Shown: positions 2,700-21,824 of the stretch, piece by piece
Layout of the letters: each line of letters starts with the position of its first letter
Numbering within the stretch: position 1 is the first letter of the stretch
Origin: a virus
Taxonomy: Duplodnaviria; Caudoviricetes
Length of the DNA: 24,110 nucleotides
IMG/VR virus record: IMGVR_UViG_3300043414_001006
Coordinates: 1-24,110 of that record
Strand: one strand, 5' to 3'
Notes under the pieces: model-generated
The model's database searches: none
Seen by the model: only the letters and a program-made list of their open reading frames with translations
Told to the model about the DNA's origin: nothing
Program-made: the position numbers and the translations under genes

Positions 2700-2705
2700 T
2701 TGACA
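2700..2705 (+). promoter_or_regulatory. TTGACA start-proximal motif, 13 nt before ATG 2719
   Basis: TTGACA-cgtagcaaacaca-ATG; one of eight similarly spaced copies. Confidence 0.7.
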
Positions 2706-2718
2706 CGTAGCAAACACA

Positions 2719-3015
2719 ATGGCCGCCCTTTCCCGCAGACTGATCCGGGCAGTCGCCACCGATTACTTAGCGCAAGCAAGCGGGGTGACTGCGTCCGCCC
2801 TGGTATCGCTCGCCGCGGACCGCAACACCGCCATGAGTGGCGCCGCCTCTGGCCGTGCGCTAGTAGGATCTTCAGCCGGTGGCCAATCCGCCAGTTTCCA
2901 GATCGATCTCAAACCCACCGACCGCGTTGAACTCTTTCAAAGCGCCATCGATTACCTCGGCGGTCGCACCCTCACCCGAACCACAGCGGACTTTACGTTC
3001 GTGATTGATAGCTAA
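2719..3015 (+). CDS. Putative head-tail joining protein (gpW position)
   Basis: 98 aa ORF between terminase and portal, with its stop overlapping the portal ATG (TAATG); call rests on synteny with lambda. Confidence 0.6.
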   Translation: MAALSRRLIRAVATDYLAQASGVTASALVSLAADRNTAMSGAASGRALVGSSAGGQSASFQIDLKPTDRVELFQSAIDYLGGRTLTRTTADFTFVIDS

Positions 3016-4823
3016 TGGCTAGCGTCTCCCTCGTTCGTCGGTTAGGCGCTGGCATCAAAAGCTTTAGTGCTGGATTCGGGTCTGGGATCTCCACCTTCCA
3101 GCCTTACGAGGCGGCAGGATTCTCCCGCAAGAGGCCAGTCATCTACGGTGCACACGCTCGGGATTCGTCACTGGATTTAAGCGAATGGACAAGAACGGAA
3201 CTTCTTAAGCTTGCTCGGCACATGTACCGCAATGTCGGCCTGATTAAAGGCGCAGTGGATTCGATCGCCGCCTACTCCGTCGGCCCAGGGCTCCGCCCAC
3301 AATATCGCGGGGCAGATGTAGAGTTTGGGAAGTTAGCCGAGCAGTACTGGCGGGACGTAGTGGCGCCCAACCCAGAAGTCACCGGCCGCATGACCTGGAC
3401 AGATCTACTCTTAGCACTCAGCCGATCCATCGACGTCGACGGCGACGTGTTCGTCATTATGACCGACAAAGGAAAGCTCCAAGTCGTTGAAGGTCACAGA
3501 GTTTGCGAGGGCGACAACTACGAATCCACCGACGGCGTTTTCCTTGGTAAGATGGGCGAGCCCACCGCCTACCTGCTTGAGCTCGGCGACACCTACCGAA
3601 AAATAAACGCCGATCTCGTTATTCATCTTATGGAAATGGAACGGCCAGATCAGATCCGTGGCGGATCTAACTTGGCTCGCGCACTCAATCACGTCCGCGA
3701 TCTGAAACTCTTGGGCGAGTTTGAAAAAGACGCGCTCAAGTTACAGGGATCGATCGCCGCCGTTATCACGTCTAACGAAGGCGACGCACTCGCCGGCAGC
3801 GGAGGATTCTTTGGTAACATAGCCACCGCAGATCTTGGCGATACGTCCATCGCACGGGAACAGATCACCAGCTCCGCCACCATTCCGCGACTCGCCCCTG
3901 GGGAAAAGATTGAGATGGTCGCACCCAACCGGCCAAACAACGGATTCGAGCCCTTTGCAAAATTCTTAATTCGTGACGTGGCCATGGGCCTTGGTCTGCC
4001 GATAGAGTTTGTTTACGATCCAGCCAGCGTCGGCGGGGCAGGGATGCGATTTATCGTGGCCAAGGCACAGCGCCGCTTTGAGCAACGCCAACGTCTTTTG
4101 ATCGATCGATTCTGTAACAGGTCGTGGTCGTACTTTATTGGCCGGGCAATAGCCAACGGGGATCTACCACCCGCGGAAGATTATCGAAAAGTAAGCTGGC
4201 AGACTCCAAAGTCACTCACCGTGGACGCCGGCCGCGAAGAAATGCAGGCACGCGAGTCGTATAAAGCGGGCCTCATAAGTCTACAAACCTACCACGGAGA
4301 ACTAGGAGAGGATTGGGTAGAACAAGTTGATCAGATTAAAGCCGAGCAAACATACATGAGCGGGGGGACAGAAGTCTCGCAAGCACCTCTCATCACAAAA
4401 ATCGGCGACCAAGGGGCTCGGTCTATTACCGCGATCCTTCAATCCATTGGCATGGGACAAATTACGCCAGAACAAGCCGAAGTTATCCTTGTGACAGTCT
4501 ATGGTTTAAACAAAGAAGACGCGGCCAAAATTGCTCGCGGCGGCTCGACTGCCCAGCGCTTACCAGTTGCCGCACCGATCGTCGCAGAACCAGAAGAAGA
4601 TCCTATCCCGCAAGAACCCAAGGCCGACGCTACCGCCACCGACACCACTACCCCTACCGATATCGTCACAGACGTACCCGAGAACACCCCACCCGAGCAG
4701 CTCGCCGCCCCATCCTTTATTATGCCCGACGACGCACCCGATTTTAACCTCAGCGCTAAAGAGCTCAACATGATCGTCACTGCCCTCGGCATCGGTAAGG
4801 CCAAAGCTAAGAAAAAGAAGTAA
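3015..4823 (+). CDS. Portal protein, lambda family, with C-terminal extension
   Basis: YEAA...ARHMYRN...VGPGLRP, DGDVF, VIHL...RPDQIRG, RLAPGE and GLGLPIE motifs typical of lambda gpB-type portals; position after terminase. Confidence 0.93.
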   Translation: MASVSLVRRLGAGIKSFSAGFGSGISTFQPYEAAGFSRKRPVIYGAHARDSSLDLSEWTRTELLKLARHMYRNVGLIKGAVDSIAAYSVGPGLRPQYRGADVEFGKLAEQYWRDVVAPNPEVTGRMTWTDLLLALSRSIDVDGDVFVIMTDKGKLQVVEGHRVCEGDNYESTDGVFLGKMGEPTAYLLELGDTYRKINADLVIHLMEMERPDQIRGGSNLARALNHVRDLKLLGEFEKDALKLQGSIAAVITSNEGDALAGSGGFFGNIATADLGDTSIAREQITSSATIPRLAPGEKIEMVAPNRPNNGFEPFAKFLIRDVAMGLGLPIEFVYDPASVGGAGMRFIVAKAQRRFEQRQRLLIDRFCNRSWSYFIGRAIANGDLPPAEDYRKVSWQTPKSLTVDAGREEMQARESYKAGLISLQTYHGELGEDWVEQVDQIKAEQTYMSGGTEVSQAPLITKIGDQGARSITAILQSIGMGQITPEQAEVILVTVYGLNKEDAAKIARGGSTAQRLPVAAPIVAEPEEDPIPQEPKADATATDTTTPTDIVTDVPENTPPEQLAAPSFIMPDDAPDFNLSAKELNMIVTALGIGKAKAKKKK

Positions 4824-4824
4824 T

Positions 4825-4830
4825 TTGACA
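4825..4830 (+). promoter_or_regulatory. TTGACA start-proximal motif, 14 nt before ATG 4845
   Basis: TTGACA-cgcgctggccgagt-ATG. Confidence 0.7.
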
Positions 4831-4844
4831 CGCGCTGGCCGAGT

Positions 4845-5738
4845 ATGGCCAACAAACTCCCGTCCGTTTCAATCTTAACTGTAGGCGAGGCTAAAGGCCA
4901 CGACCTCCTTATCGACCAAACCTCACTCGAACAAGCGCTCGCCGTAGCGCAGACCATGAAGCGGATCAAAGTCACCATGGGCCACGGCGCCCAAGTCGAC
5001 GGCATTCTTGGCTACATCGACGGCTTTGTGATCAAAGGCGATCGGCTCATGGGCGATCTGACCTTGTTCAGCACCACCCAAGCCCAGTTCGTCCAGCAGC
5101 TCGCCAAGGAACTACCCGAGGGATTCGGCCTGTCCCTCACGTTTAGCGGCGTACCCGCCGAAGTGGGTGGCAATCGGTACGCCAGGGTAGATGAGATATT
5201 TGATATTTCCGTAGTGAGCAGTCCTGCCGCAAACAGCGCAGGGCTTTTTTCAGCCTTCACTGCAGTTGACATCCAAAAACTACAAATGATCGAAGCACCT
5301 ATCGTCGAGAAAATCGAAGCGGCCCCCGTGGTCGAAGTCATCGCCACCCCCGAAGTCGCGCCCGTCGTAGCTGCCTTGGCCGAAGCGCCTGCCGCCACGC
5401 CAGACGCGCCCGTCGAAACCAAAGCCGCTGAGCCCACCTTGGTGGATATCGCCGCCATGCTCACCGAACTGCTCGGCTTAATGAAAGTCGACGCAGCCTC
5501 CGACATCACCGAAGAGCCCGCCATGGATATGGCCAAAAAAGAAGTCGCCGCCATGAGCGCCGTCATCGACGAAAAAACTGTCATCACTCTAGAAAAAGCG
5601 AAGACCGATTCTGCAGGTGCAGAACCGATTCCCGCTGAATCCGCCCAGCCGGTTGGCCGCGGTGAGATCCTTAATCAATTCAACCAGGAGAAAGACGGCT
5701 CAAAACGAGTCAAACTTCTCCGCAAGTTAGGTCTGTAA
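4845..5738 (+). CDS. Prohead protease fused to scaffold
   Basis: N-terminal domain with GH, GLSL and DISVVSSPAAN..LFS motifs resembling HK97/herpes-fold maturation proteases; acidic Ala/Pro/Glu-rich C-terminal half; lies between portal and capsid. Confidence 0.8.
   Translation: MANKLPSVSILTVGEAKGHDLLIDQTSLEQALAVAQTMKRIKVTMGHGAQVDGILGYIDGFVIKGDRLMGDLTLFSTTQAQFVQQLAKELPEGFGLSLTFSGVPAEVGGNRYARVDEIFDISVVSSPAANSAGLFSAFTAVDIQKLQMIEAPIVEKIEAAPVVEVIATPEVAPVVAALAEAPAATPDAPVETKAAEPTLVDIAAMLTELLGLMKVDAASDITEEPAMDMAKKEVAAMSAVIDEKTVITLEKAKTDSAGAEPIPAESAQPVGRGEILNQFNQEKDGSKRVKLLRKLGL
5266..5271 (+). promoter_or_regulatory. TTGACA motif inside protease gene, 14 nt before in-frame ATG 5286
   Basis: TTGACA-tccaaaaactacaa-ATG at the protease/scaffold boundary. 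Confidence 0.65.
5286..5738 (+). CDS. Nested in-frame scaffold protein (internal start)
   Basis: In-frame ATG (MIEAPIVEK...) preceded by the TTGACA-N14 motif and an A-rich leader; analogous to lambda Nu3 within gene C. Confidence 0.6.
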   Translation: MIEAPIVEKIEAAPVVEVIATPEVAPVVAALAEAPAATPDAPVETKAAEPTLVDIAAMLTELLGLMKVDAASDITEEPAMDMAKKEVAAMSAVIDEKTVITLEKAKTDSAGAEPIPAESAQPVGRGEILNQFNQEKDGSKRVKLLRKLGL

Positions 5739-5769
5739 AAAGATCTAAAGAAAAAAGGAACAAACCACC

Positions 5770-6660
5770 ATGGCAAATACACTCGGCACAACCAATGCAA
5801 ACGTAATCGCGCAGAGGGCGTTAGAAATCCTCGTCGCCGATTACAGCTTCCTCCGCTCAGGAGTAACTGATTTTTCGGACGAGGCAGCCAAGTACGGCGC
5901 CTCCGTCTTCACGTCCCGCCTCAGCGCGCTCACCGCTGCTAACTACAGCCAGAGCACCGGCTACGCGGCCGCCGCTGTCACACAAACGGACGTGTCCATC
6001 ACCTTGGATAAGTTCAAGCACGTTTCCTACTCGGTGGACGATCAGGAGCGCACCAGCTCGAACGTGAACTTGATCGAGCGTTTCGCAGGTGCGGCCGCTC
6101 ACGCAATCGGGTTGCAGATGGTGGGCGATTTGCTCACCCTCGTCACCTCGGCCACCTTCACCTCCGCCCTCACAGTTGCTTCCACCGCGTTTAACTATCG
6201 CTCGGTAGTGTCTGCCGGTGCAACGCTCAACGCGAACAACTCGCCCGTCAACGGACGCTACTGCGTGTTGGCGCCCTTGTACTACGGTGCGCTGATGAAT
6301 GATACCACGGTCGTGGCGAATCCTCAGATCACTGGGGACATCGTTCGCGCCGGTGGGATTGGCAAAGTTGCTGGGTTCGATGTGAACCAGTACAGCGCCA
6401 TTCCTGCTAACGGCATCACCCTCGGCGGATTCTTTGCCCAACAGGAAGCGCTGCTCATCGCAGCCCGCGTGCCCGAAGTGCCCACAGGCGTTCCGATCCC
6501 TGGAGACATCTCGATCGTAACGGAACCCCGCACAGGTCTGAGCGTTATGGTTCGTGAGAGCTATAACATCACCCTCGGCACCCTCCAACGCACCTACGCC
6601 TTGATCTACGGCGTGAAAGCTGGGGAGCCCAACAGCCTAGTCCGCATCAACGGAGCCTAA
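5770..6660 (+). CDS. Major capsid protein
   Basis: 296 aa after protease/scaffold; ITLDKFKH, GRYCVLAP and GKVAGFDV segments resemble HK97-fold (P22-coat-like) capsids; A-rich leader with AAGGA at 5755-5759; followed by a strong hairpin. Confidence 0.88.
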   Translation: MANTLGTTNANVIAQRALEILVADYSFLRSGVTDFSDEAAKYGASVFTSRLSALTAANYSQSTGYAAAAVTQTDVSITLDKFKHVSYSVDDQERTSSNVNLIERFAGAAAHAIGLQMVGDLLTLVTSATFTSALTVASTAFNYRSVVSAGATLNANNSPVNGRYCVLAPLYYGALMNDTTVVANPQITGDIVRAGGIGKVAGFDVNQYSAIPANGITLGGFFAQQEALLIAARVPEVPTGVPIPGDISIVTEPRTGLSVMVRESYNITLGTLQRTYALIYGVKAGEPNSLVRINGA

Positions 6661-6667
6661 GTCAGTC

Positions 6668-6721
6668 GGAACGGGCGGTGGTCCAATCGGATCACCGCCC
6701 CTTCCACCCTAAAGAAATCCT
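6668..6721 (+). promoter_or_regulatory. Stem-loop plus GAAATCCT element after the capsid gene
   Basis: GGGCGGTGGTCC-AATC-GGATCACCGCCC (12 bp with one G-U, extendable by GGAA/TTCC), no U-tract, then ACCCTAAAGAAATCCT. Confidence 0.75.
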
Positions 6722-6727
6722 CGATCC

Positions 6728-7027
6728 ATGTCTGAATTCACAGAAGCCCTTAAAGAATCGCTCGCCGTTTTGCACGAGCAAACAGGCACCACCGTCACCA
6801 TCGGATCTACCGCCGTCACCGGCATCCTTTCCACCATCACCCGCAAAGAGAACGTCGAGCTCGGCGGATTCGATCTCGATCTAAATAGCACCTTCACCAT
6901 CGACGTCTCCTTACTAGCCACTGCACCCACCATCGGATCTGTCCTGGTGGCGAACTCTGTCTCTTACCGCATCGTCTCAGTCGACACCTCCGTTGGCTCC
7001 TACCTCCTCGGCCTTAGAGAAAAGTAA
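6728..7027 (+). CDS. Putative head-closure / head-tail joining protein (gpFII-like)
   Basis: 99 aa beta-rich protein right after the capsid gene with PTIGSVL...YRIVSV pattern; synteny. Confidence 0.65.
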   Translation: MSEFTEALKESLAVLHEQTGTTVTIGSTAVTGILSTITRKENVELGGFDLDLNSTFTIDVSLLATAPTIGSVLVANSVSYRIVSVDTSVGSYLLGLREK

Positions 7028-7036
7028 GCCGTAGTT

Positions 7037-8728
7037 ATGGCACCCCGAAATCCTCCCAAAATATCGATTTACTTTATCGCAGGCCATGAGGCCCAATTTA
7101 TAGCCAGAGCCTTGGCTGCTTTCCGTCCTTTCTGTAGCGAGATCATCGTGGCACTCGCCCAGGGTAACCGGCCGGACGACGGCACCCGCGAGATCGCTGA
7201 GAAAGCAGGCGCCACCGTCATCACCTACCACAACTCAGCCACCGGCGCTGATTGGCCCCACGTCGATAATTTTGCCCACGCCCGTAACTGCGCACTCAAT
7301 GCGTGTACCGGGGACTACGCCGTCTGGTTCGATTGCGACGATCTACCCGCCACAAACCTCGATAAATGCTTCACAAGGGCCGTGGAAGCGTTTGAAAAAG
7401 ATTCAGCCCTCGGGATCTACGCAGGCGTCTACAGCGTTTTAAACGCCAAATTAAACCCGATTAGGGAAAGAATGGTAAAGCGCTTGCCGGATGGCGGCTG
7501 GTCCGGCACTTGGCACTACGCCGTCCATGAGGCGCTCCTGCCGATCGCTGGGCTGAAATCCATAGGGGAACAGAACGTCTGGTGCGAACACCACTGCGGT
7601 GGCTACAAGCCCGGAAGCGCAGATCGTAACCTCCGCATCCTAGGAGGTGAACTCAGCCAGGCGGGCAAGTACGCATATTATTACCAGCAGGAACTATTCT
7701 TAGGGAATAAGCGGAACGAGAGCGGCGTCTGGTCCCGCGTCGCCGCCTACTGGCCCGGCCAAGATCACACCCTGCAGTACGAGGCCATGTGCAACTACGC
7801 GGCCGCCCACCCCGATAGGGAAGCCCGCATGAAACTTTATGCTGAAGCGCATCAGCTCCAGCCCGGCCGCCGTGAGGCGCTGTACTACATGGCCCGCGAG
7901 GAAGCATCCACCGGCAGGTGGGGCGCCGTGTACTACATGCTGAAGGCGGCCATGGTACAGCCCGATCCCGGCATCTCGATTTGGAACTGCCAGCGATCCA
8001 TCTACGACTTTGAGTGCATCGACCTCTACATCGCTGCCGCCCGCATGGCAGGCGATATGGCCGAAGTGGAGAAGATCACAACCTCTTGGCGTAAGCAGTC
8101 ACCCATTAAAATTTCCATTCTACACGCCACCCGCGGCCGCCCTCAGGATGCCATCAACGCCCGCGTCCTATGGATGAAAAAAGCATCTAACCCGCAGAAT
8201 ATAGAGTGGATCTTCTCCTGCGATAACGACGATACCACCGCCGCCGTCCTCAAACCGTGGAACCCCGTCATGGGCGATGGCAGTTGCGTAGCCGCATGGA
8301 ACAGGGCGGCAGTTCAAGCCCAGGGCGAAATCCTTATCCAAGCTAGCGACGATTGGGACCCACCCCTCTACTGGGACACCATCGTGACGGAGCGCCTAGG
8401 CGATCTCAGTAAGCCCAAAGTCCTGGCGATCTCCGACGGGCACCGCACCGACGAACTCCTTTGTATGGCCATTTTAACAAAAGCTCGGCTTATCCAGCAG
8501 AGCTCACTTTTTGCCGAGGAATACGACGCCTGCTCGGGCATCTTTAGCGATAACGAGTACAGCCACAGAGCAAAAAAAGACGGCGTCATCGTTCAGGCAA
8601 AGGACGTCGTCTTTACCCATAATAATCCAATGTTCACGGGTGCAGTACAAGACGCAGAATTTAAAAAGCATAACGCACAGGAAAACTACGTTTTAGGCGA
8701 AAAGATATTTAAGGAGCGTAACTCGTGA
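7037..8728 (+). CDS. Glycosyltransferase: GT2 domain, TPR-like linker, second GT-A-like domain
   Basis: DDGTREIA, NFAHARN and WFDCDD (DxD) in the N-terminus; helical repeats with QPGRREALYYMA; C-terminal ISILHATRGRP, DNDD, AAWNRAA, GEILIQASDD and SDNE motifs. Confidence 0.88.
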   Translation: MAPRNPPKISIYFIAGHEAQFIARALAAFRPFCSEIIVALAQGNRPDDGTREIAEKAGATVITYHNSATGADWPHVDNFAHARNCALNACTGDYAVWFDCDDLPATNLDKCFTRAVEAFEKDSALGIYAGVYSVLNAKLNPIRERMVKRLPDGGWSGTWHYAVHEALLPIAGLKSIGEQNVWCEHHCGGYKPGSADRNLRILGGELSQAGKYAYYYQQELFLGNKRNESGVWSRVAAYWPGQDHTLQYEAMCNYAAAHPDREARMKLYAEAHQLQPGRREALYYMAREEASTGRWGAVYYMLKAAMVQPDPGISIWNCQRSIYDFECIDLYIAAARMAGDMAEVEKITTSWRKQSPIKISILHATRGRPQDAINARVLWMKKASNPQNIEWIFSCDNDDTTAAVLKPWNPVMGDGSCVAAWNRAAVQAQGEILIQASDDWDPPLYWDTIVTERLGDLSKPKVLAISDGHRTDELLCMAILTKARLIQQSSLFAEEYDACSGIFSDNEYSHRAKKDGVIVQAKDVVFTHNNPMFTGAVQDAEFKKHNAQENYVLGEKIFKERNS

Positions 8729-9360
8729 TCGAAGGGTACCGCAGAATTCACGGCGGCCACTGGTGGCAAGAGGAACGCACCGGCCAAAGTCCATCGTATG
8801 ACCTCGCGTACGTAAAGGAGCGCTACGACACCTACACCACTACTCAGGCTATGAGCGCACTGCGCTACGATATTATCCGCGCCTACTTTGGCAGTTTTTC
8901 CAGCGTGCTCGATGTGGGCTACGGCAACGGAGATTTTCTGCGCTACTGCCATGCCCGTAATCACCAGGCGTTCGGCTACGACATCAGCGGTTATCCTTTA
9001 CCCGCCGGAGTGGAAAGAAGCGAAACCATGTCCAAGTCAGTCAGCATCGTCAGCTTCTTCGACAGCCTAGAACACTTTGAGGATGCGGATCTAAGTGGAA
9101 CCCTTCGCGGCCTGCGAGCTGAGGCCGTCGTCATCTCATGCCCGCTTCTTCACGAAACGGCTGGGGCAGATTCTTTTCGCGATTGGAAACACCGCCGGCC
9201 TAACGAGCATTACCACCACTTTAACGAACGCGGCCTGCGCACCCTTCTTTCCTATTCGGACTACACCGTCACTTGGACGGGATGCCCGGAGGATCAGATC
9301 CGTGGCGTACTACCTGACGGAAAGGCGAACATCATCACCGTCATCGCCGAACGTAATTGA
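8725..9360 (+). CDS. Class I SAM-dependent methyltransferase
   Basis: Motif I VLDVGYGNGDFL, GYDIS and FFDSLEHF; GTGA overlap with the upstream gene. Confidence 0.88.
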   Translation: MIEGYRRIHGGHWWQEERTGQSPSYDLAYVKERYDTYTTTQAMSALRYDIIRAYFGSFSSVLDVGYGNGDFLRYCHARNHQAFGYDISGYPLPAGVERSETMSKSVSIVSFFDSLEHFEDADLSGTLRGLRAEAVVISCPLLHETAGADSFRDWKHRRPNEHYHHFNERGLRTLLSYSDYTVTWTGCPEDQIRGVLPDGKANIITVIAERN

Positions 9361-10022
9361 AAACCATCGTCTACCACCAACGCCTTGGCGACGTGTTGCA
9401 ATGTCTTCCCGCTGCTCGCTACCTAGCGCAAACCGACGAAGTGCAGATCGAGTGCCTGCCACAATATAAAGGCGTGCTCGATCTTGTTTCCTACGCCACT
9501 TGGGTGGCGCCAGGACAAGGGGCAGGGGAACGGATCGAATTAGAGATCTGGCCAAAAAGATATAACGATTACCGCGCCTCTGGATTGTCTTGGATGGATT
9601 TTGTTTACCAGCACCCAGCGATCGCAGCCGCCGATCGCCGGATCGTGCTCGATCGCGTCCCAGACGGTCCGCCGCCCGGCCTGCCAGATCAGTATAACCT
9701 GCTAGCGCCTATGGGTATTAGCCAAGCGTGGAATTACCCAACCTTAGATATCCAGCTTAAGGCGGAAGAACTCATGGGCGATTATCTGATAATGTGCGAA
9801 AAACAGTACTACTTCCACAGGCGTCACTGGACTGCGGACAACGTAGTCCAAATGGCACAAGCCATTAAACACGCAGACAAGTTTATGACGATTAACTCAT
9901 CGCCGGTCGTACTGGCCTCCGCCTTGCGTCAGAATCGCCCAACTTATTTTCTTCCTCAAAAAGAACAGTGGGCCCAAGACAACGTCGCTCCGTGGCCTGG
10001 GCGCGTTGACGTGGAGCTCTAA
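9357..10022 (+). CDS. GT-B fold glycosyltransferase, GT9 (heptosyltransferase)-like
   Basis: N-terminal RLGDVLQCLP and C-terminal INSSPVVLASAL resemble the GT9 LGD..P and DSGP.HLA.A motifs; TTG start overlapping the previous gene. Confidence 0.7.
   Translation: MKTIVYHQRLGDVLQCLPAARYLAQTDEVQIECLPQYKGVLDLVSYATWVAPGQGAGERIELEIWPKRYNDYRASGLSWMDFVYQHPAIAAADRRIVLDRVPDGPPPGLPDQYNLLAPMGISQAWNYPTLDIQLKAEELMGDYLIMCEKQYYFHRRHWTADNVVQMAQAIKHADKFMTINSSPVVLASALRQNRPTYFLPQKEQWAQDNVAPWPGRVDVEL
10006..10011 (+). promoter_or_regulatory. TTGACG variant of start-proximal motif, 14 nt before ATG 10026
   Basis: TTGACG-tggagctctaatct-ATG. Confidence 0.55.
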
Positions 10023-10025
10023 TCT

Positions 10026-10472
10026 ATGCCCGCCGTCACCATGCTCGATCGTTTAATTGAAGCTGCTTTCAAAGAGCTGATCTCACCCGTAGTTACCGCT
10101 CCTACCTACCACCTTTCCCACGATCAATCGGAGAACATGCCTCCGTCCATCGTGATTAAAGCGTCCATGGGCTCAGAGGAACCCGTGCGCGGCAGTGGCG
10201 TATTCAGCATCCCAGTAGAAATCATCTTTGAAGAAAGTTACGATGACGCCACCCCCGCCTCCCACAGCGCCCAGTGCAGCCAGATCCTGCAGTGCTTTTA
10301 TGATTCCACCAATCTCTCGGCTAGGCTTAACGCCACCACCGCCATCGGCTCAGCCCGCACCTACTCCGCTAAGTTAGAATCTAGCGAGGCCAGTGCCAAC
10401 AATGAGGAGCGCAATTACACCCAAAACTATAAGCTCACCGTCATCGCCTACCCGAATTCCACTGCCAGTTGA
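10026..10472 (+). CDS. Putative tail terminator / tail completion protein
   Basis: 148 aa directly upstream of the tail tube candidate; P.IVI segment; synteny. Confidence 0.55.
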   Translation: MPAVTMLDRLIEAAFKELISPVVTAPTYHLSHDQSENMPPSIVIKASMGSEEPVRGSGVFSIPVEIIFEESYDDATPASHSAQCSQILQCFYDSTNLSARLNATTAIGSARTYSAKLESSEASANNEERNYTQNYKLTVIAYPNSTAS

Positions 10473-10474
10473 CA
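10469..10474 (+). promoter_or_regulatory. TTGACA motif, 16 nt before ATG 10491
   Basis: TTGACA-ccaataaaagaacatt-ATG; the motif contains the upstream TGA stop. Confidence 0.65.
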
Positions 10475-10490
10475 CCAATAAAAGAACATT

Positions 10491-14006: not shown

Positions 14007-14010
14007 TTAT

Positions 14011-14784
14011 ATGGCAACTTCAATTCTCGGAACATTTCCCATCCTTAACCACAAAAAGTCTCAAACAGACGAGTATGGTTTCGATTACGTGACGTATCAA
14101 TACACCATCAAGACGTCAGACTTGGAAAGTTATAGCATAAAAAAAGACGATGAATTTTACGGATTCAGTTCGTTGGGCTCAATTATTTCCACAAAAACCC
14201 TAGCCACTGGATTAACCTACGTTGTGGAAAGTGTAGACACAAAAAATACATCAGGCGGATTAACCGAGCTGGTCGTGCAGACAGTTGGCTCAAAAAATAC
14301 CGCAGAAAATAACACGCCAAGAGTTTCAATTATTTCGGGTGGGCCACTCATATTCGGATTAGCCGGAACACTTCCGTCTAGTGCAGAAGCAGGCGAGTAC
14401 GGCGTTGCTGGTGCTGGTCAAACCGTAGAGGTAAAATTCCTTGCTAGCGGCGGAGCCTCCGGACAGCAAGCGGTCTTGACGCAATATATCGGATCTTTAA
14501 TGCCTACTGCCTTTCGAGGAATAAGCCTACCAGTTCCAACAAGAGGCCCTGGGCCTTTTGGTAATCAAACAACTTATGAAACAGTTGATAATGTAGGGAA
14601 TCCAGTATTCAGCTATGCTGGGATTGATGGGAATTATTATGGTTTTCGTTGTCGAACAATTTCAACGGAAAGGCGCGGAAGCCTCATTCTGGTTACCCTG
14701 TTATTTTCAGAGGCTGGAATAAAATTTACATACGGAACAGGCGCCCAAACAACGCTAATATGGAATTTCCCAATCTTTGGGTAG
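14011..14784 (+). CDS. Putative tail tip / baseplate-hub protein
   Basis: 257 aa beta-rich ORF directly after the tape measure; synteny only. Confidence 0.55.
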   Translation: MATSILGTFPILNHKKSQTDEYGFDYVTYQYTIKTSDLESYSIKKDDEFYGFSSLGSIISTKTLATGLTYVVESVDTKNTSGGLTELVVQTVGSKNTAENNTPRVSIISGGPLIFGLAGTLPSSAEAGEYGVAGAGQTVEVKFLASGGASGQQAVLTQYIGSLMPTAFRGISLPVPTRGPGPFGNQTTYETVDNVGNPVFSYAGIDGNYYGFRCRTISTERRGSLILVTLLFSEAGIKFTYGTGAQTTLIWNFPIFG

Positions 14785-14791
14785 AAATATA

Positions 14792-15121
14792 ATGCCACAA
14801 GAACCTAAGCTAGATATGTTGCCAGATAAGGATATGAAACTATCTGGGGCGCATTTTCGCAAAGTAGTAAGGCGGATTGAGTCTATTGTTCCGCTTGCTG
14901 GGGACGGAATAAAGGTAACACCTAAAGATGGTGGCTATGAAATAGAAAACGCCGCACCCGCGCCTTATGGCGCGTGTGGGTTTATTTCGCAAGGCTATGC
15001 ACTTGTCTTTGATACAGTAGATTTAAATGTTTGTAGTAACGGCCAACCAGACGTCCTTACTGTTGTAATACTTGCAGATGGGCGCAACTCTTTTGCTGAG
15101 GTTTGTGAATCAGTGCTCTAG
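14792..15121 (+). CDS. Hypothetical tail-associated protein
   Basis: In-frame ATG 14792 preferred over TTG 14777; PLAGDGIKVT segment. Confidence 0.7.
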   Translation: MPQEPKLDMLPDKDMKLSGAHFRKVVRRIESIVPLAGDGIKVTPKDGGYEIENAAPAPYGACGFISQGYALVFDTVDLNVCSNGQPDVLTVVILADGRNSFAEVCESVL

Positions 15122-15127
15122 GTGACA
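15122..15127 (+). promoter_or_regulatory. GTGACA variant of start-proximal motif, 13 nt before ATG 15141
   Basis: GTGACA-aggtatttaagtt-ATG. Confidence 0.55.
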
Positions 15128-15140
15128 AGGTATTTAAGTT

Positions 15141-16883
15141 ATGGCAAGCAACATTGACATTCTTTTAAACAAATCCAGCGGCCTGCTCCTAGGCGGCTCG
15201 GCCCCCGCTGGTGTCTTGCCAGCCTTTACTAGGAACGATGTCTACCCATTTCGGCTCCGTGTACTAGAGCGCAACGCAGACGGCTCCTACACCGACGCCG
15301 CTCTCTCTAGTCCATCTTTCTCGCTAGGCATCGGTAACATCGACGCGGTGGCCACAGACGGCCAGTTTAAGCTCACCACCACCACCGGCACCTCCACCGC
15401 CATCTCCTTTAACGCCACCACCGCTCAGGTACTTTCAGCCGTCAGCGCAATCGCAGGAAACGTGGGCGTGGTAACCTATGGTAATTCTGGATCGGCCTGG
15501 ATCATCACGGCCGCCACTGCTAACACGGCGCTCAGCTTTGGAGCGCTGCCCTTTACGCTTTTCCCAACTGCGGCCGTCCAGGTCAACACACGAAGAGTCC
15601 CAACCGCCTCCGTCTACGCCCAGCAGATCGTTTCGTTAAGCCGCAACCCTGCCGTCTTTTCTAGTTCATTCACCGCCGTTTCTGGGGATGGCGTTGCCCT
15701 CACAAAAACACAAGATGGCTCGGCATCATTAAACGAGACCTACGCTCTCACTATTGGTAACGATGTTTATGGCGGCTCGTACAGCTTGGCTTATGGCGGC
15801 TACTCGGTGGGGATTGGGTACAATCAGAGTGCGGCTAATGTAACCACCATGCTCTCGGCCGTAACCGGGATCGGGGCTAATAATATATCCGTTGTTAGCG
15901 ATTCAAAGAGGGGTTTGATTATATCTTTTGTAAATGCTTTGGGCCTGCAAAACGTAACTACCGCCCTTACGCTAGATTCCTCAGGCATACAAACTTACAG
16001 CTACTACACCTCCACCGTCACCATGTCTACGAGCGAGATGGAGGAACTATTTAACGAGGCAGGTACGGACACTATCACTCCCACGCTAGAGATTGAAATG
16101 ACGGAGAGTGGTCAAACAAAAACCCTTCTTCAGTACACCACCACAATCAGTAAGGATCTAATTTTAACTGGGGCACTGGTCCCTGCCGATTTGGCGCTGT
16201 ACTACACCGCCGCCCAGGTGAACGCCGGATTCATCGCGGATTCTGGGACGAATGTAAACGCTGCTAACCGTGCTTTAAAATCTTACACTGGCGTCACTGC
16301 CGTGAACTACGGCGGCCGCACCCTAGTGAACAGTTCTGGCGCAAATGTCGTTAGCTTTGCTACTGGCCTAGCCCTTTCTGGTGTGATGGGTTTTTATGGC
16401 AACACGCCCACCGCTCAACCCTCTGGAACAAACATCGTGTCTGGACTTACAAACATTGGCTTAATTTCCTACACCCAGCCTACTGGAACAAACATTGTCT
16501 CTGGACTCACAAACACCGGATTGCTTTTATACACTCAGCCAACGGCAGTTAATGTTGTTTCTGGCCTAATCAATACTGGCTTAATTGCAAGCGGAGTTAG
16601 CTACGGCGTTTTTCCACAATCCTCCTACACCGTCACCACCCTTACCTCCGTTACCTTTGGAACTTTAGCGGGTAACGACCAGCATTATCGAGATGTGGTC
16701 GTGACAGGTGCAACCGTTAATGGGATTGTTTTAGTTGGCTTGCCCTCGGCAGTTTCGGCGGGAGCAATTATTCAGGGTGTAGTTTATCAGACCAATACTG
16801 TCTGTCTATCTTGCGTAAATGCCGATAGTGCCTCGATTGATGTGAACACCGCCACCTACCGCATTACCGTCATCGGTTATTAA
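15141..16883 (+). CDS. Tail fibre / baseplate structural protein
   Basis: 580 aa Thr/Ser/Ala/Gly-rich; two similar segments (TAISFNATTAQV, VGIGYNQSAANV), GFYGNTPTAQP motif and internal 20-aa repeats. Confidence 0.7.
   Translation: MASNIDILLNKSSGLLLGGSAPAGVLPAFTRNDVYPFRLRVLERNADGSYTDAALSSPSFSLGIGNIDAVATDGQFKLTTTTGTSTAISFNATTAQVLSAVSAIAGNVGVVTYGNSGSAWIITAATANTALSFGALPFTLFPTAAVQVNTRRVPTASVYAQQIVSLSRNPAVFSSSFTAVSGDGVALTKTQDGSASLNETYALTIGNDVYGGSYSLAYGGYSVGIGYNQSAANVTTMLSAVTGIGANNISVVSDSKRGLIISFVNALGLQNVTTALTLDSSGIQTYSYYTSTVTMSTSEMEELFNEAGTDTITPTLEIEMTESGQTKTLLQYTTTISKDLILTGALVPADLALYYTAAQVNAGFIADSGTNVNAANRALKSYTGVTAVNYGGRTLVNSSGANVVSFATGLALSGVMGFYGNTPTAQPSGTNIVSGLTNIGLISYTQPTGTNIVSGLTNTGLLLYTQPTAVNVVSGLINTGLIASGVSYGVFPQSSYTVTTLTSVTFGTLAGNDQHYRDVVVTGATVNGIVLVGLPSAVSAGAIIQGVVYQTNTVCLSCVNADSASIDVNTATYRITVIGY
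16410..16588 (+). repeat. Three tandem 60-nt (20-aa) coding repeats
   Basis: QPSGTNIVSGLTNIGLISYT / QPTGTNIVSGLTNTGLLLYT / QPTAVNVVSGLINTGLIA. Confidence 0.9.
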
Positions 16884-16884
16884 C

Positions 16885-16911
16885 TAGGGGCTAGTCCCCT
16901 AACGAAATCCT
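16885..16911 (+). promoter_or_regulatory. Stem-loop plus GAAATCCT element after fibre gene
   Basis: TAGGGG-CTAGT-CCCCTA followed by ACGAAATCCT, abutting ATG 16912. Confidence 0.75.
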
Positions 16912-17562
16912 ATGGGAAAGATTCTTCACGCTAGTGCTAGCGGGTATTTTCCAAATTGTATTAAAATCGGTCCTCGTGATGAACCAACCCAAAGCCTTCC
17001 GTTTACTGGCTTTACTGATATGACGCTTGACCAAGCTATGGGCTTGCTTTGGAGGGTAAAAACCTGGGAATGCCTTGTTTCTGGTAGTTCAGAGTATCTT
17101 CCACCAGAAGGGCCGGGTGCCAGTTATATTACAACTTTTACAGACACTACATATCGAGAAATGTTTACATTTACGCCAATAAATCAAGAGGAAGATTTGG
17201 TTTGTGGTATTCAGTTTCAATATCGATTAGATGATATACCGGCCCTTTTTACTTTCCTAGATGGCTCAATGAATATTCCTCAGACTTGTAAATTTTATAT
17301 TGGTTCTAATGACATTTCAAAAGTTGGAGATGTATATTTTCCTACATTATCTACTAATTGTTGGTCGTTTTCGTCTATTGGTTCCGTAGGTGAATTTAGT
17401 CAAGCCATTGGAACATATAATATAAGCTTTTTAGGTTATGTAATTACACGCACTACATATAATGGTATTTATGTTTTTGGTTCTCAAACTATCAACATTA
17501 GAGCCAAAGAATACTGGTCTTACGGAGGAACATACGACACGGCAACTGGCGAACCCTTGTGA
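16912..17562 (+). CDS. Hypothetical tail-associated protein with AT-rich core
   Basis: 216 aa ORF with a visibly AT-richer central portion. Confidence 0.8.
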   Translation: MGKILHASASGYFPNCIKIGPRDEPTQSLPFTGFTDMTLDQAMGLLWRVKTWECLVSGSSEYLPPEGPGASYITTFTDTTYREMFTFTPINQEEDLVCGIQFQYRLDDIPALFTFLDGSMNIPQTCKFYIGSNDISKVGDVYFPTLSTNCWSFSSIGSVGEFSQAIGTYNISFLGYVITRTTYNGIYVFGSQTINIRAKEYWSYGGTYDTATGEPL

Positions 17563-17780
17563 GTTGTTCCGTTTGTGGCAAGGCAAGAAGCTTGTCTGGC
17601 TCCGTCTTAGAATGGACTAGGGCGGGGATGCCGATTGCAAATTCTGCCACGCTTGAAAGTCGACAGGGCACTTGTCGAGCGTGCGAATTTTACAAGAAAC
17701 CCATATGCCAGCGGTGCGGTTGTGTCATAGCCATGAAAGCAAGGCTGCAGACTAGCAAGTGTCCAGAGGGCAAGTGGTAG
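17559..17780 (+). CDS. Small Cys-rich, probably metal-binding protein (DUF6171-like)
   Basis: CxxC, CRAC, CQRCGC...K.....KCPEGKW; GTGA overlap with the upstream gene. Confidence 0.75.
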   Translation: MSCSVCGKARSLSGSVLEWTRAGMPIANSATLESRQGTCRACEFYKKPICQRCGCVIAMKARLQTSKCPEGKW

Positions 17781-17783
17781 TCT

Positions 17784-17789
17784 TTGACA
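17784..17789 (+). promoter_or_regulatory. TTGACA motif, 13 nt before ATG 17803
   Basis: TTGACA-cccacagtccaga-ATG. Confidence 0.7.
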
Positions 17790-17802
17790 CCCACAGTCCA
17801 GA

Positions 17803-18138
17803 ATGGCCGCTGGCGTCTATAATTTAACAATCGAGCAGGGCGTGGATCTCGCCCTTGAGGTGGCCGTAAAAGACAGCACCGCCGCCACCTACTCGCTCAC
17901 TGGCGCCACTGCGGCCGCTCAGATCCGTGATACCTACAACGGTTCTCTGCTAGCCACCTTTGCCACCGTCACTGCCACTGGCACCACTGGCTCTCTTACC
18001 CTAGCGTTGAGCGCCGTCACCGCCTCCGCCTTGCCGTTGTCTGGCGGGTACTGGGATCTGCTCCTTACCACTAGCGCCGCCACAAAAGTCCGCCTGCTTC
18101 AAGGAAGCGTATCCATCGCAGGTGAGGTGACAGAGTAA
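17803..18138 (+). CDS. Ig-like fibre adaptor (BppU N-terminal-like) protein
   Basis: YNLTIEQG...YSLTGATAAAQIR...YWDLLL...RLLQG pattern typical of phage fibre-attachment domains. Confidence 0.7.
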   Translation: MAAGVYNLTIEQGVDLALEVAVKDSTAATYSLTGATAAAQIRDTYNGSLLATFATVTATGTTGSLTLALSAVTASALPLSGGYWDLLLTTSAATKVRLLQGSVSIAGEVTE

Positions 18139-18272
18139 TGGCCCTTACCGCCACCGTCTGCGGTCCGGCCTCCATAAGCGTAGCCGTCGGCACGCCCATC
18201 GTCACTGGCTCAGCCGGGGCAGGGGGCGTGACTACTGGCACGGCCGTGGCGCTGGCAGTGGCGCTAGGATGA
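18138..18272 (+). CDS. 44-aa protein ending in AVALAVALG (not in ORF track)
   Basis: MALTATVCGPASISVAVGTPIVTGSAGAGGVTTGTAVALAVALG; TAATG coupling to the upstream gene; fills the gap. Confidence 0.75.
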   Translation: MALTATVCGPASISVAVGTPIVTGSAGAGGVTTGTAVALAVALG

Positions 18273-18297
18273 CATAGGAAAGCATAGAAAGAATAAA

Positions 18298-19335
18298 ATG
18301 AAACAAGTCTGGCCAAATTACTCATACTCGCCCACAACCAACGTGCTCACCCTCACGGGCCTTAACATAGACCGCGACCAACTTCTGCTCGTCACGGCCG
18401 CCGATCGCGGGCGGATCATGTATAACTTTGCCGATAGTACAGTTACCGCATCCGCCTTCACCGCTGGGGCAAACACTGGGCTCACCTTGGTGGCGTCTAC
18501 CGCGGGCCTCACCACCACGGCCGCGCTTGTAATCTACTACGACGATCAGCTACAAAGCGCCGCCATTACTGGGACAGTCACCGTCTCCTCCCTCCCCGCC
18601 ATCTCTGGCACGGTGACGGTGGGTAGTTTACAAACTATAGTTATAGACGCTATAAATAATGTTGGTAACAATGACGGTTTTCCAGATTATCGTTTAGGTA
18701 CTGCTATCTACGAGGGAAATAGTGAAATTTCACCCGCAAGATTTATCGGAGTTGGATACACCGATGCAAATAGTGCTGGTAGGCTTGTCACCGATTCAAC
18801 CCCATTTCCAGTAAGACTTTTAAGCACAATCGGTGTACAGGCGGTGGCAGGAACTGCCCGAATCGGCGTGGTGACGATTGGAGCAGGAACGGTAACAATA
18901 GGAGCAGGGACGGCACAGATTGGCTCAGTCACCGCATCCATATCTAACTTTCCCGCCACTCAACCCATCAGCATCTCCTCCGTCACGATTGGCAATAGCG
19001 TCACCATCGGTTCTCTCCCTGCAATTAGCGGGACGGTAACTGCCAACTCATCTAACGGATCTCTGACAACAAGGTTCGGCTCGGTCGCTACTGCCAACAC
19101 AGCCTTTGCAACATCTGCCGTTACTAACGCAAATAGAAAATATCTACTGATTCAGAATGTCACTACGGCCTCAAATGTAATTACAGTAGGAATTGGCTTT
19201 ACCCCCACCACCACCCAAGGCATCCAACTTTCCTCTGGGGCAGGGCTAACCTTTGAGGGCAATTATATCCCGACTGGAACTGTTAATTTGTTGTCCAGCG
19301 TAACCGCTTCTTGCTTTACCATTCTGGAGGCGTAA
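18298..19335 (+). CDS. Tail fibre-like protein
   Basis: 345 aa Thr-rich with SLPAISGTVT twice and VTIGAGT repeats; C-terminal NANRKYLLIQN beta-sandwich-like domain. Confidence 0.7.
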   Translation: MKQVWPNYSYSPTTNVLTLTGLNIDRDQLLLVTAADRGRIMYNFADSTVTASAFTAGANTGLTLVASTAGLTTTAALVIYYDDQLQSAAITGTVTVSSLPAISGTVTVGSLQTIVIDAINNVGNNDGFPDYRLGTAIYEGNSEISPARFIGVGYTDANSAGRLVTDSTPFPVRLLSTIGVQAVAGTARIGVVTIGAGTVTIGAGTAQIGSVTASISNFPATQPISISSVTIGNSVTIGSLPAISGTVTANSSNGSLTTRFGSVATANTAFATSAVTNANRKYLLIQNVTTASNVITVGIGFTPTTTQGIQLSSGAGLTFEGNYIPTGTVNLLSSVTASCFTILEA

Positions 19336-20703
19336 GTGGGCTTCTTTGCCACAAGCGGAATCCTCAATCGCAGGGGGTTCTTTGGTGGAGCTACAGCCTT
19401 TAACCCATCCAACATCGCTGGTCTTTCCCTCTGGCTGAAGGCTGATGCTGGGGTAACACAAAGCACATCACTGTTAAACGGCCTCCTCGCTTACTGGAAA
19501 CTTGATACTGATAGCTGGATAGATTCAAGCGGGAATGGAATTGATCTGCTAAGCTATAGTGGGGTAACTGTTGGGACAGGGATTATTTCTGGTTGTGCTT
19601 TAATTTCTCCAAGCGGTGGATATCTTGATAATTCTTCAACAAATTTTAATGTTGGAACCGCAGATATCTCAGCCTCTGTATGGATTAAGCCATTAACTTA
19701 TGGAGCTATAGCATATGATATTTTAGCTGGAACAGTTTTTGATTTAAGAAATGGCTCGGTAGGCGATTGGCTTTTAATTTTTGGCGATACTGGTAAATTA
19801 TTAGTTTGGGAGCTGGGCGTGGTTTATGAATCGACAGTTACAATTTCATTAAATACTTGGACGCATATAGCTATTTCAAGAAGCTCTGGAACAACAAGTT
19901 TTTATATAAATGGCTCACTTGATGGAACTTTTAGTGATGCGCAAGATTTCCAATCTCAATTAATCACAATCGGCGGTGTTTTTGATTTTGCAGGAGACCC
20001 AGATACTTTGCAATACGATGGGAATATAGACGAACTTGGATTCTGGAATCGAGCCTTATCCGAAACAGAAATCGCATCTCTCTACAACGCTGGGGCTGGG
20101 AATACCTATCCTTTCATAGATGCAGGAGTCCAAGATGTAACAGCTTGGGCAGATCAGAGTGGGAATGGAAATGATGCTACTGCCACAGACACGCCATCAC
20201 TAAGCACAGTAAGCGGAAAAACATTTGTAGATTTTGCTGGTGGTTACTTTAGCGGAAACGAGTTAATCACATCTCCATATGTAACAATTATGTTTGTAGC
20301 AAGGTTTTCTGACTATCAAGAAATTGGAGTAATATTTCAGCAATATTCAGATGCAGATAATTTAGCTTTCTATATAGGATTTAGTTCGGGTACTGCATGC
20401 AGAATATACAACGGCGACAATTTAAGCTCTCTTACAGAAACAAATAACAATCAAACATATTTATTTGGAACAACTGTTGAGGGCGATCAAGGAGAATTAT
20501 TTCTAAATGGGGTTAGTGACGGTGATGGCTATTGTGGAGAGATAACACCCGCTGGAGCATATTATATAGGGAGATGGGTTAGTGGCGCAGCTACAACTAC
20601 TATAATGAAAATGGCTGAAATTGTTATTTATGATCGAGTCCTTACAACTCCTGAAAGAATACAAGTTGAGGCGTATCTGAACACTAAATACGCAATTTAT
20701 TAA
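19336..20703 (+). CDS. LamG / concanavalin-A-like lectin domain protein (candidate receptor-binding or decoration protein)
   Basis: LWLKAD...WADQSGNGN...EIVIYDRVLT and AYWKLD...DSSGNG...WIKP...WTHIA...YING...IDELGFWNRALS motifs. Confidence 0.85.
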   Translation: MGFFATSGILNRRGFFGGATAFNPSNIAGLSLWLKADAGVTQSTSLLNGLLAYWKLDTDSWIDSSGNGIDLLSYSGVTVGTGIISGCALISPSGGYLDNSSTNFNVGTADISASVWIKPLTYGAIAYDILAGTVFDLRNGSVGDWLLIFGDTGKLLVWELGVVYESTVTISLNTWTHIAISRSSGTTSFYINGSLDGTFSDAQDFQSQLITIGGVFDFAGDPDTLQYDGNIDELGFWNRALSETEIASLYNAGAGNTYPFIDAGVQDVTAWADQSGNGNDATATDTPSLSTVSGKTFVDFAGGYFSGNELITSPYVTIMFVARFSDYQEIGVIFQQYSDADNLAFYIGFSSGTACRIYNGDNLSSLTETNNNQTYLFGTTVEGDQGELFLNGVSDGDGYCGEITPAGAYYIGRWVSGAATTTIMKMAEIVIYDRVLTTPERIQVEAYLNTKYAIY

Positions 20704-20989: not shown

Positions 20990-21196
20990 ATGAAGCTACA
21001 CAATACATATAAAAAAAAGCAATCTGTTGTGCCTTCTAATTTGCAAAAGAAAGCTAAAGCCTCTGCTATACATGTAGATAAACGGCGTTCGCTTAACACA
21101 ACTAAGCGGACGTGCAAAGGAAACCGCAGTTTTGAGGGCCTCACCTTTCCAGATAACCTCTTAGCGCTTTTCGGCTATCGCAGGAAGAACGCTTGA
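20990..21196 (+). CDS. Doubtful 68-aa basic ORF
   Basis: Open frame, but AT-rich, Lys-rich, without an RBS and overlapping several hairpins; may be non-coding. Confidence 0.3.
   Translation: MKLHNTYKKKQSVVPSNLQKKAKASAIHVDKRRSLNTTKRTCKGNRSFEGLTFPDNLLALFGYRRKNA
21086..21112. other. 10-bp stem-loop
   Basis: CGTTCGCTTA-ACACAAC-TAAGCGGACG (one G-U pair on the + strand). Confidence 0.65.
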
Positions 21197-21221
21197 ATAA
21201 GGCACAGCGTTATTAAAGTGT

Positions 21222-21383
21222 ATGACTATCGCCAATGATACAGGAGACAACGGCCCCGGCTGGCGTGAGTTTTGGCAAAGCCTAAAATGGCTAGAGGCAG
21301 AGGGCTACATCGAACTATTTTACGACGATAACGGGGAAGAGACCGTCCGCATAGCCGAAGGTGCGGAAGGCTACACCCTATGA
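21222..21383 (+). CDS. 53-aa acidic hypothetical protein (not in ORF track)
   Basis: MTIANDTGDNGPGWREFWQSLKWLEAEGYIELFYDDNGEETVRIAEGAEGYTL; ATGA coupling with the next gene. Confidence 0.7.
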   Translation: MTIANDTGDNGPGWREFWQSLKWLEAEGYIELFYDDNGEETVRIAEGAEGYTL

Positions 21384-21640
21384 GCTCCGACCAAGTGGCC
21401 GACCTTTCCGAACGTCTATCAGAGGTAAGAATTTCTGTGGCTAGGATTGAGACCCGTCAGTCCGTTATCCTAGACATGCTAGAACGGTCGCAAGCAAGCC
21501 TGGGGGAGTACCACGGGCGCCTCCGCGAAATGGAAAACTCCGCTCACTCCCTCCGCACTAAGATCTGGCTTATCTCTGTCTGTGCCGGGGCGGCCTGCTC
21601 AATGATCTGGGAGCTGGTAAAGCGCCGGATCGGCCTTTGA
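21380..21640 (+). CDS. Coiled-coil protein with C-terminal TM helix (lysis-associated, XhlA-like architecture)
   Basis: Heptad-like N-terminus (VARIETRQ) and hydrophobic IWLISVCAGAACSMIW before a basic tail. Confidence 0.7.
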   Translation: MSSDQVADLSERLSEVRISVARIETRQSVILDMLERSQASLGEYHGRLREMENSAHSLRTKIWLISVCAGAACSMIWELVKRRIGL

Positions 21641-21642
21641 CA
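21637..21642 (+). promoter_or_regulatory. TTGACA motif, 14 nt before ATG 21657
   Basis: TTGACA-ccccactggtttgc-ATG; contains the upstream TGA stop. Confidence 0.7.
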
Positions 21643-21656
21643 CCCCACTGGTTTGC

Positions 21657-21824
21657 ATGGACATATTAAACAACATCCTCAATAACTGGCAGACCTACCT
21701 TGGCGCCCTCTCGGCCGTGCTTGTGGCCGCGATCGCCGTGGCCGCCATGATCCCAGGGGACGAGCCGGAAGCCACCCTTCAAAAGATCGTAGACTTCATC
21801 GCCCGCTTCTCCGCTAAGAAGTAA
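21657..21824 (+). CDS. 55-aa putative holin (not in ORF track)
   Basis: MDILNNILNNWQTYLGALSAVLVAAIAVAAMIPGDEPEATLQKIVDFIARFSAKK; one TM helix, amphipathic basic C-terminus; in the lysis cluster. Confidence 0.65.
   Translation: MDILNNILNNWQTYLGALSAVLVAAIAVAAMIPGDEPEATLQKIVDFIARFSAKK

Follow-up and report, generated by a model that had tools for sequence, protein, structure and literature searches.

A -10 element is regarded as essential for promoter opening by RNA polymerases of the sigma70 family, and the middle promoters of phage T4 retain it. At PR' of phage lambda the pause element begins at +1. We analyzed a stretch of 24,110 nucleotides from a tailed phage (Caudoviricetes; IMG/VR record IMGVR_UViG_3300043414_001006, positions 1 to 24,110; referred to as the window) in which the sigma70 -35 word TTGACA recurs 13–16 nt before start codons of late genes, with no -10 box at the normal distance behind it. 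Among the described systems closest to these compact sites, lambda Q relocates sigma region 4 from its place ~17 bp upstream onto a -35-like site directly upstream of region 2 (PMC9388147), and in the published PR' sequence the word TTGACT ends 1 bp before +1 (PMC4604602). AsiA and MotA of T4 and other sigma4-remodelling factors are described as phage proteins that reprogramme the host polymerase via region 4 (PMC7403470). For the Thermus phage Lalka27a, a preprint describes many gene-level late promoters, leaderless messages and an inferred phage factor, with divergent genes used as promoter evidence (bioRxiv 10.64898/2026.04.20.719267).

The TTGACT word of PR' is also used by distant relatives that encode the helix-turn-helix (HTH) protein described below. 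However, Q as described works at a single paused elongation complex, depends on both a -10-like pause element and a Q-binding element, and antiterminates, whereas the compact sites are many and dispersed, have no -10-like element and appear to initiate transcription. In the T4 system a MotA box stands in for the -35 element; at the compact sites the -35 word is retained and the -10 element is missing. Lalka27a resembles what is proposed for the present locus in the density of its gene-level late promoters, its leaderless messages, its inferred phage factor and the use of divergent genes as promoter evidence, but its promoters are described with a -10 element, TAGGGT, placed six bases ahead of +1, and the compact sites have no -10. 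No description of a compact TTGACA signal was found in the literature searched, with supplements, where the Lalka27a promoter logos sit, outside the search.

Promoters of canonical geometry were available for comparison. In Verrucomicrobia phage P8625 (NC_029047), the closest cultured phage by capsid (31.6%), three syntenic late genes as well as one later gene have TTGACA placed exactly 30 nt ahead of the ATG; a term search of the main text of its genome paper does not find the word 'promoter' (PMC4642752). An early promoter of the related genome G001 has the form TTGACA-N30-GTG, and a host gene at the prophage junction on contig L198 is preceded by TTGGCG-N17-TAAAAT-N6-ATG. The canonical leaderless promoters of P8625 and L198 and the compact sites have in common the TTGACA word, syntenic first genes of late blocks and a start codon apparently at +1. 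They differ in the distance to the start, which is 29–31 nt with a -10-like hexamer in the former and 13–17 nt without such a hexamer in the latter. The normal geometry is thus found in both host and phage; compared to it, the late sites are shorter by 16 bp. No compact site was seen in 6.6 kb of host DNA. Two of the three syntenic P8625 promoters (L179: 5412–5448, 10736–10772 and 15558–15594) flank the -10 position with GTATC and GATAC and the third has a one-mismatch form; judged by its sequence, this pair is likely a late regulator site. At L029:11199–11235 an early promoter reads TTGACA-N16/17-TATGCG-N8-GTG and faces a small repressor-like open reading frame (ORF). In Akkermansia phage Moulinsart (L205), the late ATGs at 2808, 4684, 10632 and 15339 are preceded by another recurrent word, GGGGA/GGGATATAGTTAT.

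TTGACA is of ordinary abundance in the window, with 8 copies on both strands vs 9.9 expected. An ATG follows at a spacer of 13–16 nt in six of the seven plus-strand copies, compared to a background of 5.4% (P = 1.6e-7). A scan of all hexamers in 40 distance windows (~164,000 tests) upstream of 38 ORF starts of our own choice ranked TTGACA at 13–16 first, with P = 4e-13. The sequence-only reading of this DNA had proposed the signal from eight sites, five of them reading TTGACAC, with six of the seven exact plus-strand copies linked to a start and the copy at 15154 as the only one lacking an ATG; all of these coordinates, spacers and counts were reproduced, and the hexamer scan bears out the positional enrichment. 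A stop-codon artefact was rejected, as the TGA of the word is the upstream stop at only two of the six exact sites.

A related set of 178 sequences provided 235 distinct plus-strand and 21 minus-strand TTGACA contexts. These and all other counts in relatives come from kin genomes, which are not independent, and show conservation rather than separate events. ATG codons opening ORFs of at least 40 codons were absent at spacer 12 of the plus-strand contexts and occurred 47, 92, 1, 31 and 10 times at spacers 13 to 17. Such a floor at 13 with a tail to 17 would be expected from a fixed transcription start at 13–14 plus a leader of 0–4 bases. The logo consists of TTGACAY only, with uninformative spacer and flanks. 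TANNNT was found at spacer 15–19 in none of 137 sites (background 5%) and in no case in a scan of window positions 1–20000. Shine-Dalgarno (SD)-like words almost never occur upstream of exact-motif genes, compared to 33 of 33 distinct upstream regions of the capsid gene. The computed pairing with the 3' tail of 16S rRNA (taken from a non-host 16S) is correspondingly weak: exact-motif genes have median duplex energies of -0.6 to -2.8 kcal/mol, and the capsid gene reaches -6.0 kcal/mol. The motif itself is absent from the orthologous upstream regions of the capsid (0/33), portal (0/30) and head-tail (0/23) genes; matches starting after query residue 15 or without a nearby in-frame start were excluded from the orthologous counts. 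The enrichment before starts, the lack of a common spacer sequence, the missing -10 box at normal distance and the missing SD, all part of the original description of the window, therefore extend to the related phages. Two further identities of the word were considered and rejected. In the sigma54 consensus the -12 TTGC follows five bases after the -24 element; here a -12 element is lacking, the distance is wrong and the spacer carries no information. The TG of the ATG does not serve as an extended -10, as no TANNNT follows it.

The strand distribution of the word points to a signal in DNA. Antisense TTGACA is depleted in eight related genomes (5 vs 31.2 expected; seventh most depleted by ratio of 4075 hexamers), and the P8625 control has no such depletion (6 vs 7.9). 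Since an RNA signal would not be purged from the untranscribed strand, the signal should act at the DNA level. In the gene before the tape-measure gene, the word is kept in the frame xTT-GAC-ATx in 31 of 31 distinct contexts. An ATG at spacer 14 opens a short frame ending at or just before the tape-measure start in 23 of them, and the other 8 keep the motif without a start codon at 13–17; the window's own, divergent gene at this place is without the site. Genome G003 contains an inverted gene cassette whose minus-strand TTGACAC-N15-ATG lies back to back with the TTGACAC-N14-GTG of the next, plus-strand gene, at a distance of 14 nt. Outside its own record, IMG/VR contains no relative of the inverted Cys-rich gene, so that this natural experiment is a single case. 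At a start located inside a longer gene (window 5286, see below), the codons GTT-GAC-A are kept in 45 of 47 contexts vs 20% GTT and 53% GAC elsewhere in the gene. The early region holds one TTGACA in 486 kb and none linked to a start, whereas 27 of 28 copies are start-linked in 188 kb of late region (80 of the 205 loci found by the close HTH profile). Hairpins lie directly after the capsid, tube and tail genes. The antisense depletion, the start-less site, the inverted cassette, the SD of the capsid gene, the conservation at synonymous sites and the late restriction favour a promoter heading each late block. Two options had been left by the sequence-only reading: the compact late promoter gained support from these results and from the co-occurring HTH protein, and an RNA-level UUGACA signal in place of the SD is disfavoured by the DNA-level tests and by the SD-like word of the motif-free capsid gene.

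RNA contigs were available from five lake metatranscriptomes. They contain 5–6% of the words of the window, as contigs of relatives and with no DNA control; window parts they leave uncovered are no evidence, and such contigs can neither show start sites nor rank genes. Cover, taken from four of the five runs, concentrates at 5337–6670. Near the internal ATG at 5286 the depth increases from 6.5 to 54 in run X5 (contig from ~5296), from 4.5 to 25 in X4 (~5299) and from 7.9 to 34 in X1 (5326), i.e. the deeper contig begins 10–40 nt after this ATG in three of four runs. The contig ends of X4 and X1 are fused to sequence which we take to be sequencing adapter. Other contigs start at 10498 and ~10504, near the ATG at 10491. 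The RNA contigs are a weak hint of a 5' end near the internal ATG 5286.

A candidate for the activator is located outside the window. In G001, a 170-residue HTH protein is encoded after the primase-helicase and just before the late genes (L029:18250–18759). A close profile finds its family at 205 IMG/VR loci, and the family forms 410 clusters at 50% identity. As a whole it has no matching curated Pfam or PHROG family. The predicted recognition helix TRAAVSK is nearly invariant. The structural model (pLDDT 88) comprises a three-helix HTH together with a long C-terminal helix. A Foldseek search with two models gave no match at E ≤ 0.001, the ESM Atlas returned unnamed viral clusters only, and no match was found among cultured phages for either the HTH protein or the integrase. 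Sigma70_r4 was detected in 2 of 60 distant members scanned, with no region-2 match seen, and a complex prediction of the HTH domain with residues 528–613 of E. coli sigma70 gave no answer either way (score 0.02). In a blind test we chose loci solely by their distant HTH subfamily (best 80 of 146 loci), whose terminases are 24–29% identical to that of the window. TTGACA was present 12–18 nt before a start in 64 of the 80 loci, with ATG counts of 0, 9, 22 and 25 at spacers 12 to 15 and a second peak of 14 at spacer 18. The fraction of start-linked contexts was 42% for TTGACA and 36% for TTGACT, compared to 1–14% for 12 control words. P8625 and Moulinsart, the only two negative controls for this co-occurrence, have neither the HTH family nor the compact motif. 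A conserved TTGACA without a start codon was also observed in the 3' end of the HTH gene in L206–L285 (e.g. L206:10436 and L257:10486), at two alternative positions within Val-Asp-Ile or Ser-Leu-Thr codons; this copy could serve as the first of the late promoters or for feedback.

Based on these results we propose the following mechanism for late transcription. TTGACA, which stands 13–17 bases ahead of the first start codon in several late blocks, would act as a single-element DNA promoter. The host's RNA polymerase, its redirection probably being due to the phage HTH protein, would start 13–14 bases downstream of the word, yielding leaderless or nearly leaderless messages. For later genes of a block, translation would use an SD (capsid) or overlap coupling, or would begin after a hairpin and the word GA[AG]ATCC. 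The TTGACA signal is real and strongly selected, and most likely represents an undescribed promoter class. A single-element compact promoter with an HTH switch is our overall best explanation, held with somewhat better than even confidence. That the word is a promoter is highly probable. As judged by the spacing, a +1 at spacer 13–14 with the ATG or GTG at +1 to +4 is likely, and from the co-occurrence of the HTH protein with the motif we lean slightly towards this protein as the switch. By analogy to lambda Q in the paused complex, the HTH protein could shift host sigma region 4 by ~16 bp toward region 2, which is conceivable but doubtful. This contraction is the preferred detailed model because a gap of 1 bp, a 6-bp region-2 site and a further 6–7 bp add up to 13–14, the floor and mode seen; recognition of TTGACA by the HTH protein itself is roughly as plausible. 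Tentatively, and with less than even confidence, these elements would combine into a novel promoter class of Verrucomicrobia phages, with one -35 word 13–14 bp before +1 and no -10, in which the HTH protein would keep host sigma contracted at initiation in the manner of Q, DNA of any sequence would be melted and transcription would start on the start codon.

A number of observations weigh against this proposal, in addition to the kinship of the genomes counted. It offers no explanation for the melting of DNA without a -10 sequence, and the spacers, at least 75% GC in 28 of 137 sites and up to 92% GC, would be hard to melt without one. Unlike at the Q pause site, a -10-like hexamer is rare at spacer 0–3 (TANNNT in only 6 of 137 sites). 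GTG at spacer 11 opens at least 40 codons in 13 contexts. Concerning the RNA contigs, run X2 has a single bridging contig with no locatable step, low-depth contigs bridge 4825, 5266 and 17784, and the data are compatible with a start at 5286 or near 5301 alike. The sequence-only reading had envisaged a sigma-region-4-like or other activator elsewhere in the genome; an HTH family co-occurring with the motif was indeed found, but its likeness to RpoD regions 3–4 reaches only E = 0.02. Fold matches of the HTH model are generic three-helix HTHs only (best Z 4.9, r.m.s.d. 3.0, 49 aligned), and these tied folds give no Q-family assignment. The co-occurrence itself may result from shared ancestry or a shared host. 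A second conserved, HTH_11-like protein (L029:15423–15671), present in 21 of 21 long close-family loci, is an alternative activator candidate. Most of the 14 spacer-18 sites of the distant group stand ahead of a gene that is AAA-ATPase-like and located upstream of the HTH gene; the motif is therefore not strictly late in that group. Finally, the sample of host chromosome amounts to 6.6 kb.

Four other explanations were weighed against the proposed promoter. The compact promoter might be read by a host factor or an alternative sigma factor of Verrucomicrobia, or by the HTH protein binding TTGACA in place of sigma region 4, with sigma not repositioned. The near-invariant TRAAVSK helix would fit a single fixed DNA word and differs from TRERIRQ of sigma70; however, the word equals the sigma70 -35 consensus and is used as such at N30 by P8625 and by the early promoter of the family itself. 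The 6.6 kb of host DNA with its lack of compact sites argues against a host factor, as does the late restriction in the close family, which implies phage control. We regard this explanation as unlikely, and its direct-binding form is a variant of the best explanation. Quite unlikely is a translation-initiation element UUGACAY that would replace the SD on long late transcripts. Its fixed distance to starts, the missing SD of the motif genes, GC-rich spacers that would need no melting and the contigs bridging several sites would all suit such an element. It is contradicted by the antisense depletion, by the motif retained without a start codon (the 8 of 31 contexts mentioned above and, in the distant group, many copies lying in the 3' end of the HTH gene), by the capsid gene with its SD-like word and no motif, and by the one-sided spacing with its floor at 13.

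Ordinary sigma70 promoters with a -10 in the first codons would start ~15 nt inside the gene and serve the next gene; alternatively, the sites could be sigma-dependent pause sites or sites of antiterminator reloading. Contig starts at 5296–5326 would fit a start near 5301, the HTH gene occupies the position of Q in G001 and G002, and AlpA is among the tied weak fold matches (Z 4.6, r.m.s.d. 2.0, 46 aligned). But the -10 hexamer is missing at all 137 sites, the register of the ATG would be unexplained, a tail-tube transcript without its ATG that stops at the hairpin behind the gene would serve no purpose, and the start of one contig, at 10498, lies upstream of the canonical 10504. We consider this very unlikely. 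An RNA processing site, at which the late transcript would be cut sequence-specifically into messages with short leaders, has an analogy in MazF-like cleavage at ACA. Such cutting would likewise leave 5' ends close to the ATG and account for the depth step at 5296–5326. It leaves unexplained, however, the antisense depletion, the copy of the inverted cassette, which needs its own promoter, and the N30 copies in P8625; moreover, no ribonuclease family was detected in 11 early proteins scanned (part of the early ORFs). The chance that processing accounts for the motif appears very slim, the smallest of the four.

In the window the sites, all on the plus strand, are distributed as follows. TTGACAC at 2700–2706 precedes by 13 nt the ATG 2719 of a 98-residue gene upstream of the portal gene, by position the head-tail adaptor, and is exact in 29 of 31 distinct orthologous upstream regions. 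At 4825–4831, TTGACAC is followed after 14 nt by the ATG 4845 of a protease/scaffold gene of the prohead, again named by position (orthologues: 32 of 40 exact and 8 TTGACG). Within this ORF (4845–5738), TTGACAT at 5266–5272 stands 14 nt before the in-frame ATG 5286 and is found in 18 of 19 orthologues; a nested scaffold-like product would start here. The likely transcription unit (5286–6710) would comprise the nested 150-residue product, the major capsid gene (5770–6660) with an SD-like AGGA, and a hairpin of -31 kcal/mol. TTGACAC at 10469–10475 overlaps the TGA stop of the preceding gene and lies 16 nt before the ATG 10491 of the tail tube gene, named by position (22 of 22 orthologous upstream regions). 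A further TTGACAC at 17784–17790 is located 13 nt before ATG 17803 of an LtfC-like gene (PHROG 1084/3304; 5 of 5 orthologues, two with GTG starts). The last one, at 21637–21643, overlaps the preceding stop and precedes by 14 nt the ATG 21657 of a small membrane protein ahead of the endolysin (6 of 6 orthologues).

The two inexact sites differ in standing. GTGACA at 15122–15127, 13 nt before ATG 15141 of a 580-residue tail gene, is a degenerate member, with exact TTGACA in 10 of 14 orthologues and GTGACA in 2. TTGACG at 10006–10011, 14 nt before ATG 10026, is a doubtful member because of the GGAG behind it and because AGGA or GGAG occurs in 15 of 31 distinct upstream regions of the orthologues; the word itself is TTGACG in 15 of these orthologues, GTGACA in 14, and TTGACA and ATGACA in one each. 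All eight ATG codons proposed at the outset are therefore present at their spacing, but the one at 5286 is internal to a longer ORF and the membership of the 10006 site is in doubt. The exact copy at 15154–15159 lies within the N-terminal codons of the gene starting at 15141, has no start codon at 13–17, and is a non-member or has another role. The start of the terminase small-subunit gene (terS) is without a compact motif in the window and in G001; other lineages have TTGACA-N14/15-ATG there. A minus-strand TTGACA overlaps the ATG at 49, inside a GTTGA...TCAAC inverted repeat (30–55). The hairpins after the capsid, tube and tail genes are each followed by GAAATCC(T) just before an ATG (6667–6727, 10840–10869 and 16885–16911), without a U-tract. 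GA[AG]ATCC stands in every orthologous upstream region counted (23 of 23 and 30 of 30) and also precedes early ATGs; hairpin and word are possibly a non-SD translation signal or an unusual terminator or attenuator.

Family matches (lambda-type terminase and portal, major head protein, endolysin) identify the window as late DNA of a tailed phage; the early region is absent from it. No family match was found for the adaptor, protease/scaffold, tail terminator, tube and tape-measure proteins, whose names rest on position. Genes for a glycosyltransferase, a methyltransferase and an unassigned protein between the head and tail genes (7037–10022) suggest glycosylation of the virion or the host surface. 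Complete relatives are ~33 kb long and temperate, with the integrase gene adjoining a tRNA-like att core. This core corresponds to the 3' half of a tRNA, Arg-like by our reading, and the host side of the junction carries a second, partial copy (L029:12545–12590; L198:6545–6672). The core was found in 24 metagenome contigs, one of which (L198) is a prophage-host junction; its host proteins fall into clusters in which 4 of the 5 listed members bearing an organism label are labelled Verrucomicrobiota. The window comes from a freshwater phage whose hosts are likely Verrucomicrobia bacteria. As host background, G004 (reached via L028) and its relatives were set aside as probably not hosts and were not used as host evidence; the 16S of one of them, G020, is presumably not verrucomicrobial. 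Stretches of G036 and G038 turned out to be phage or island DNA. In L184, a long tandem repeat of the GGCA(A/T)G type was observed between early genes, ~2950–3330 from the att side.

If the proposed mechanism is correct, these phages would use a new mode of initiation, in which the -35 word is kept, the -10 element is dropped and transcription starts 16 bp closer. The sigma contraction known from Q loading would then be usable at initiation, and the HTH family would be a testable activator family. The site would constitute a compact, 20-bp, orthogonal promoter-plus-start module, and would offer a very short element for inducible expression in a phylum for which genetic tools are scarce.

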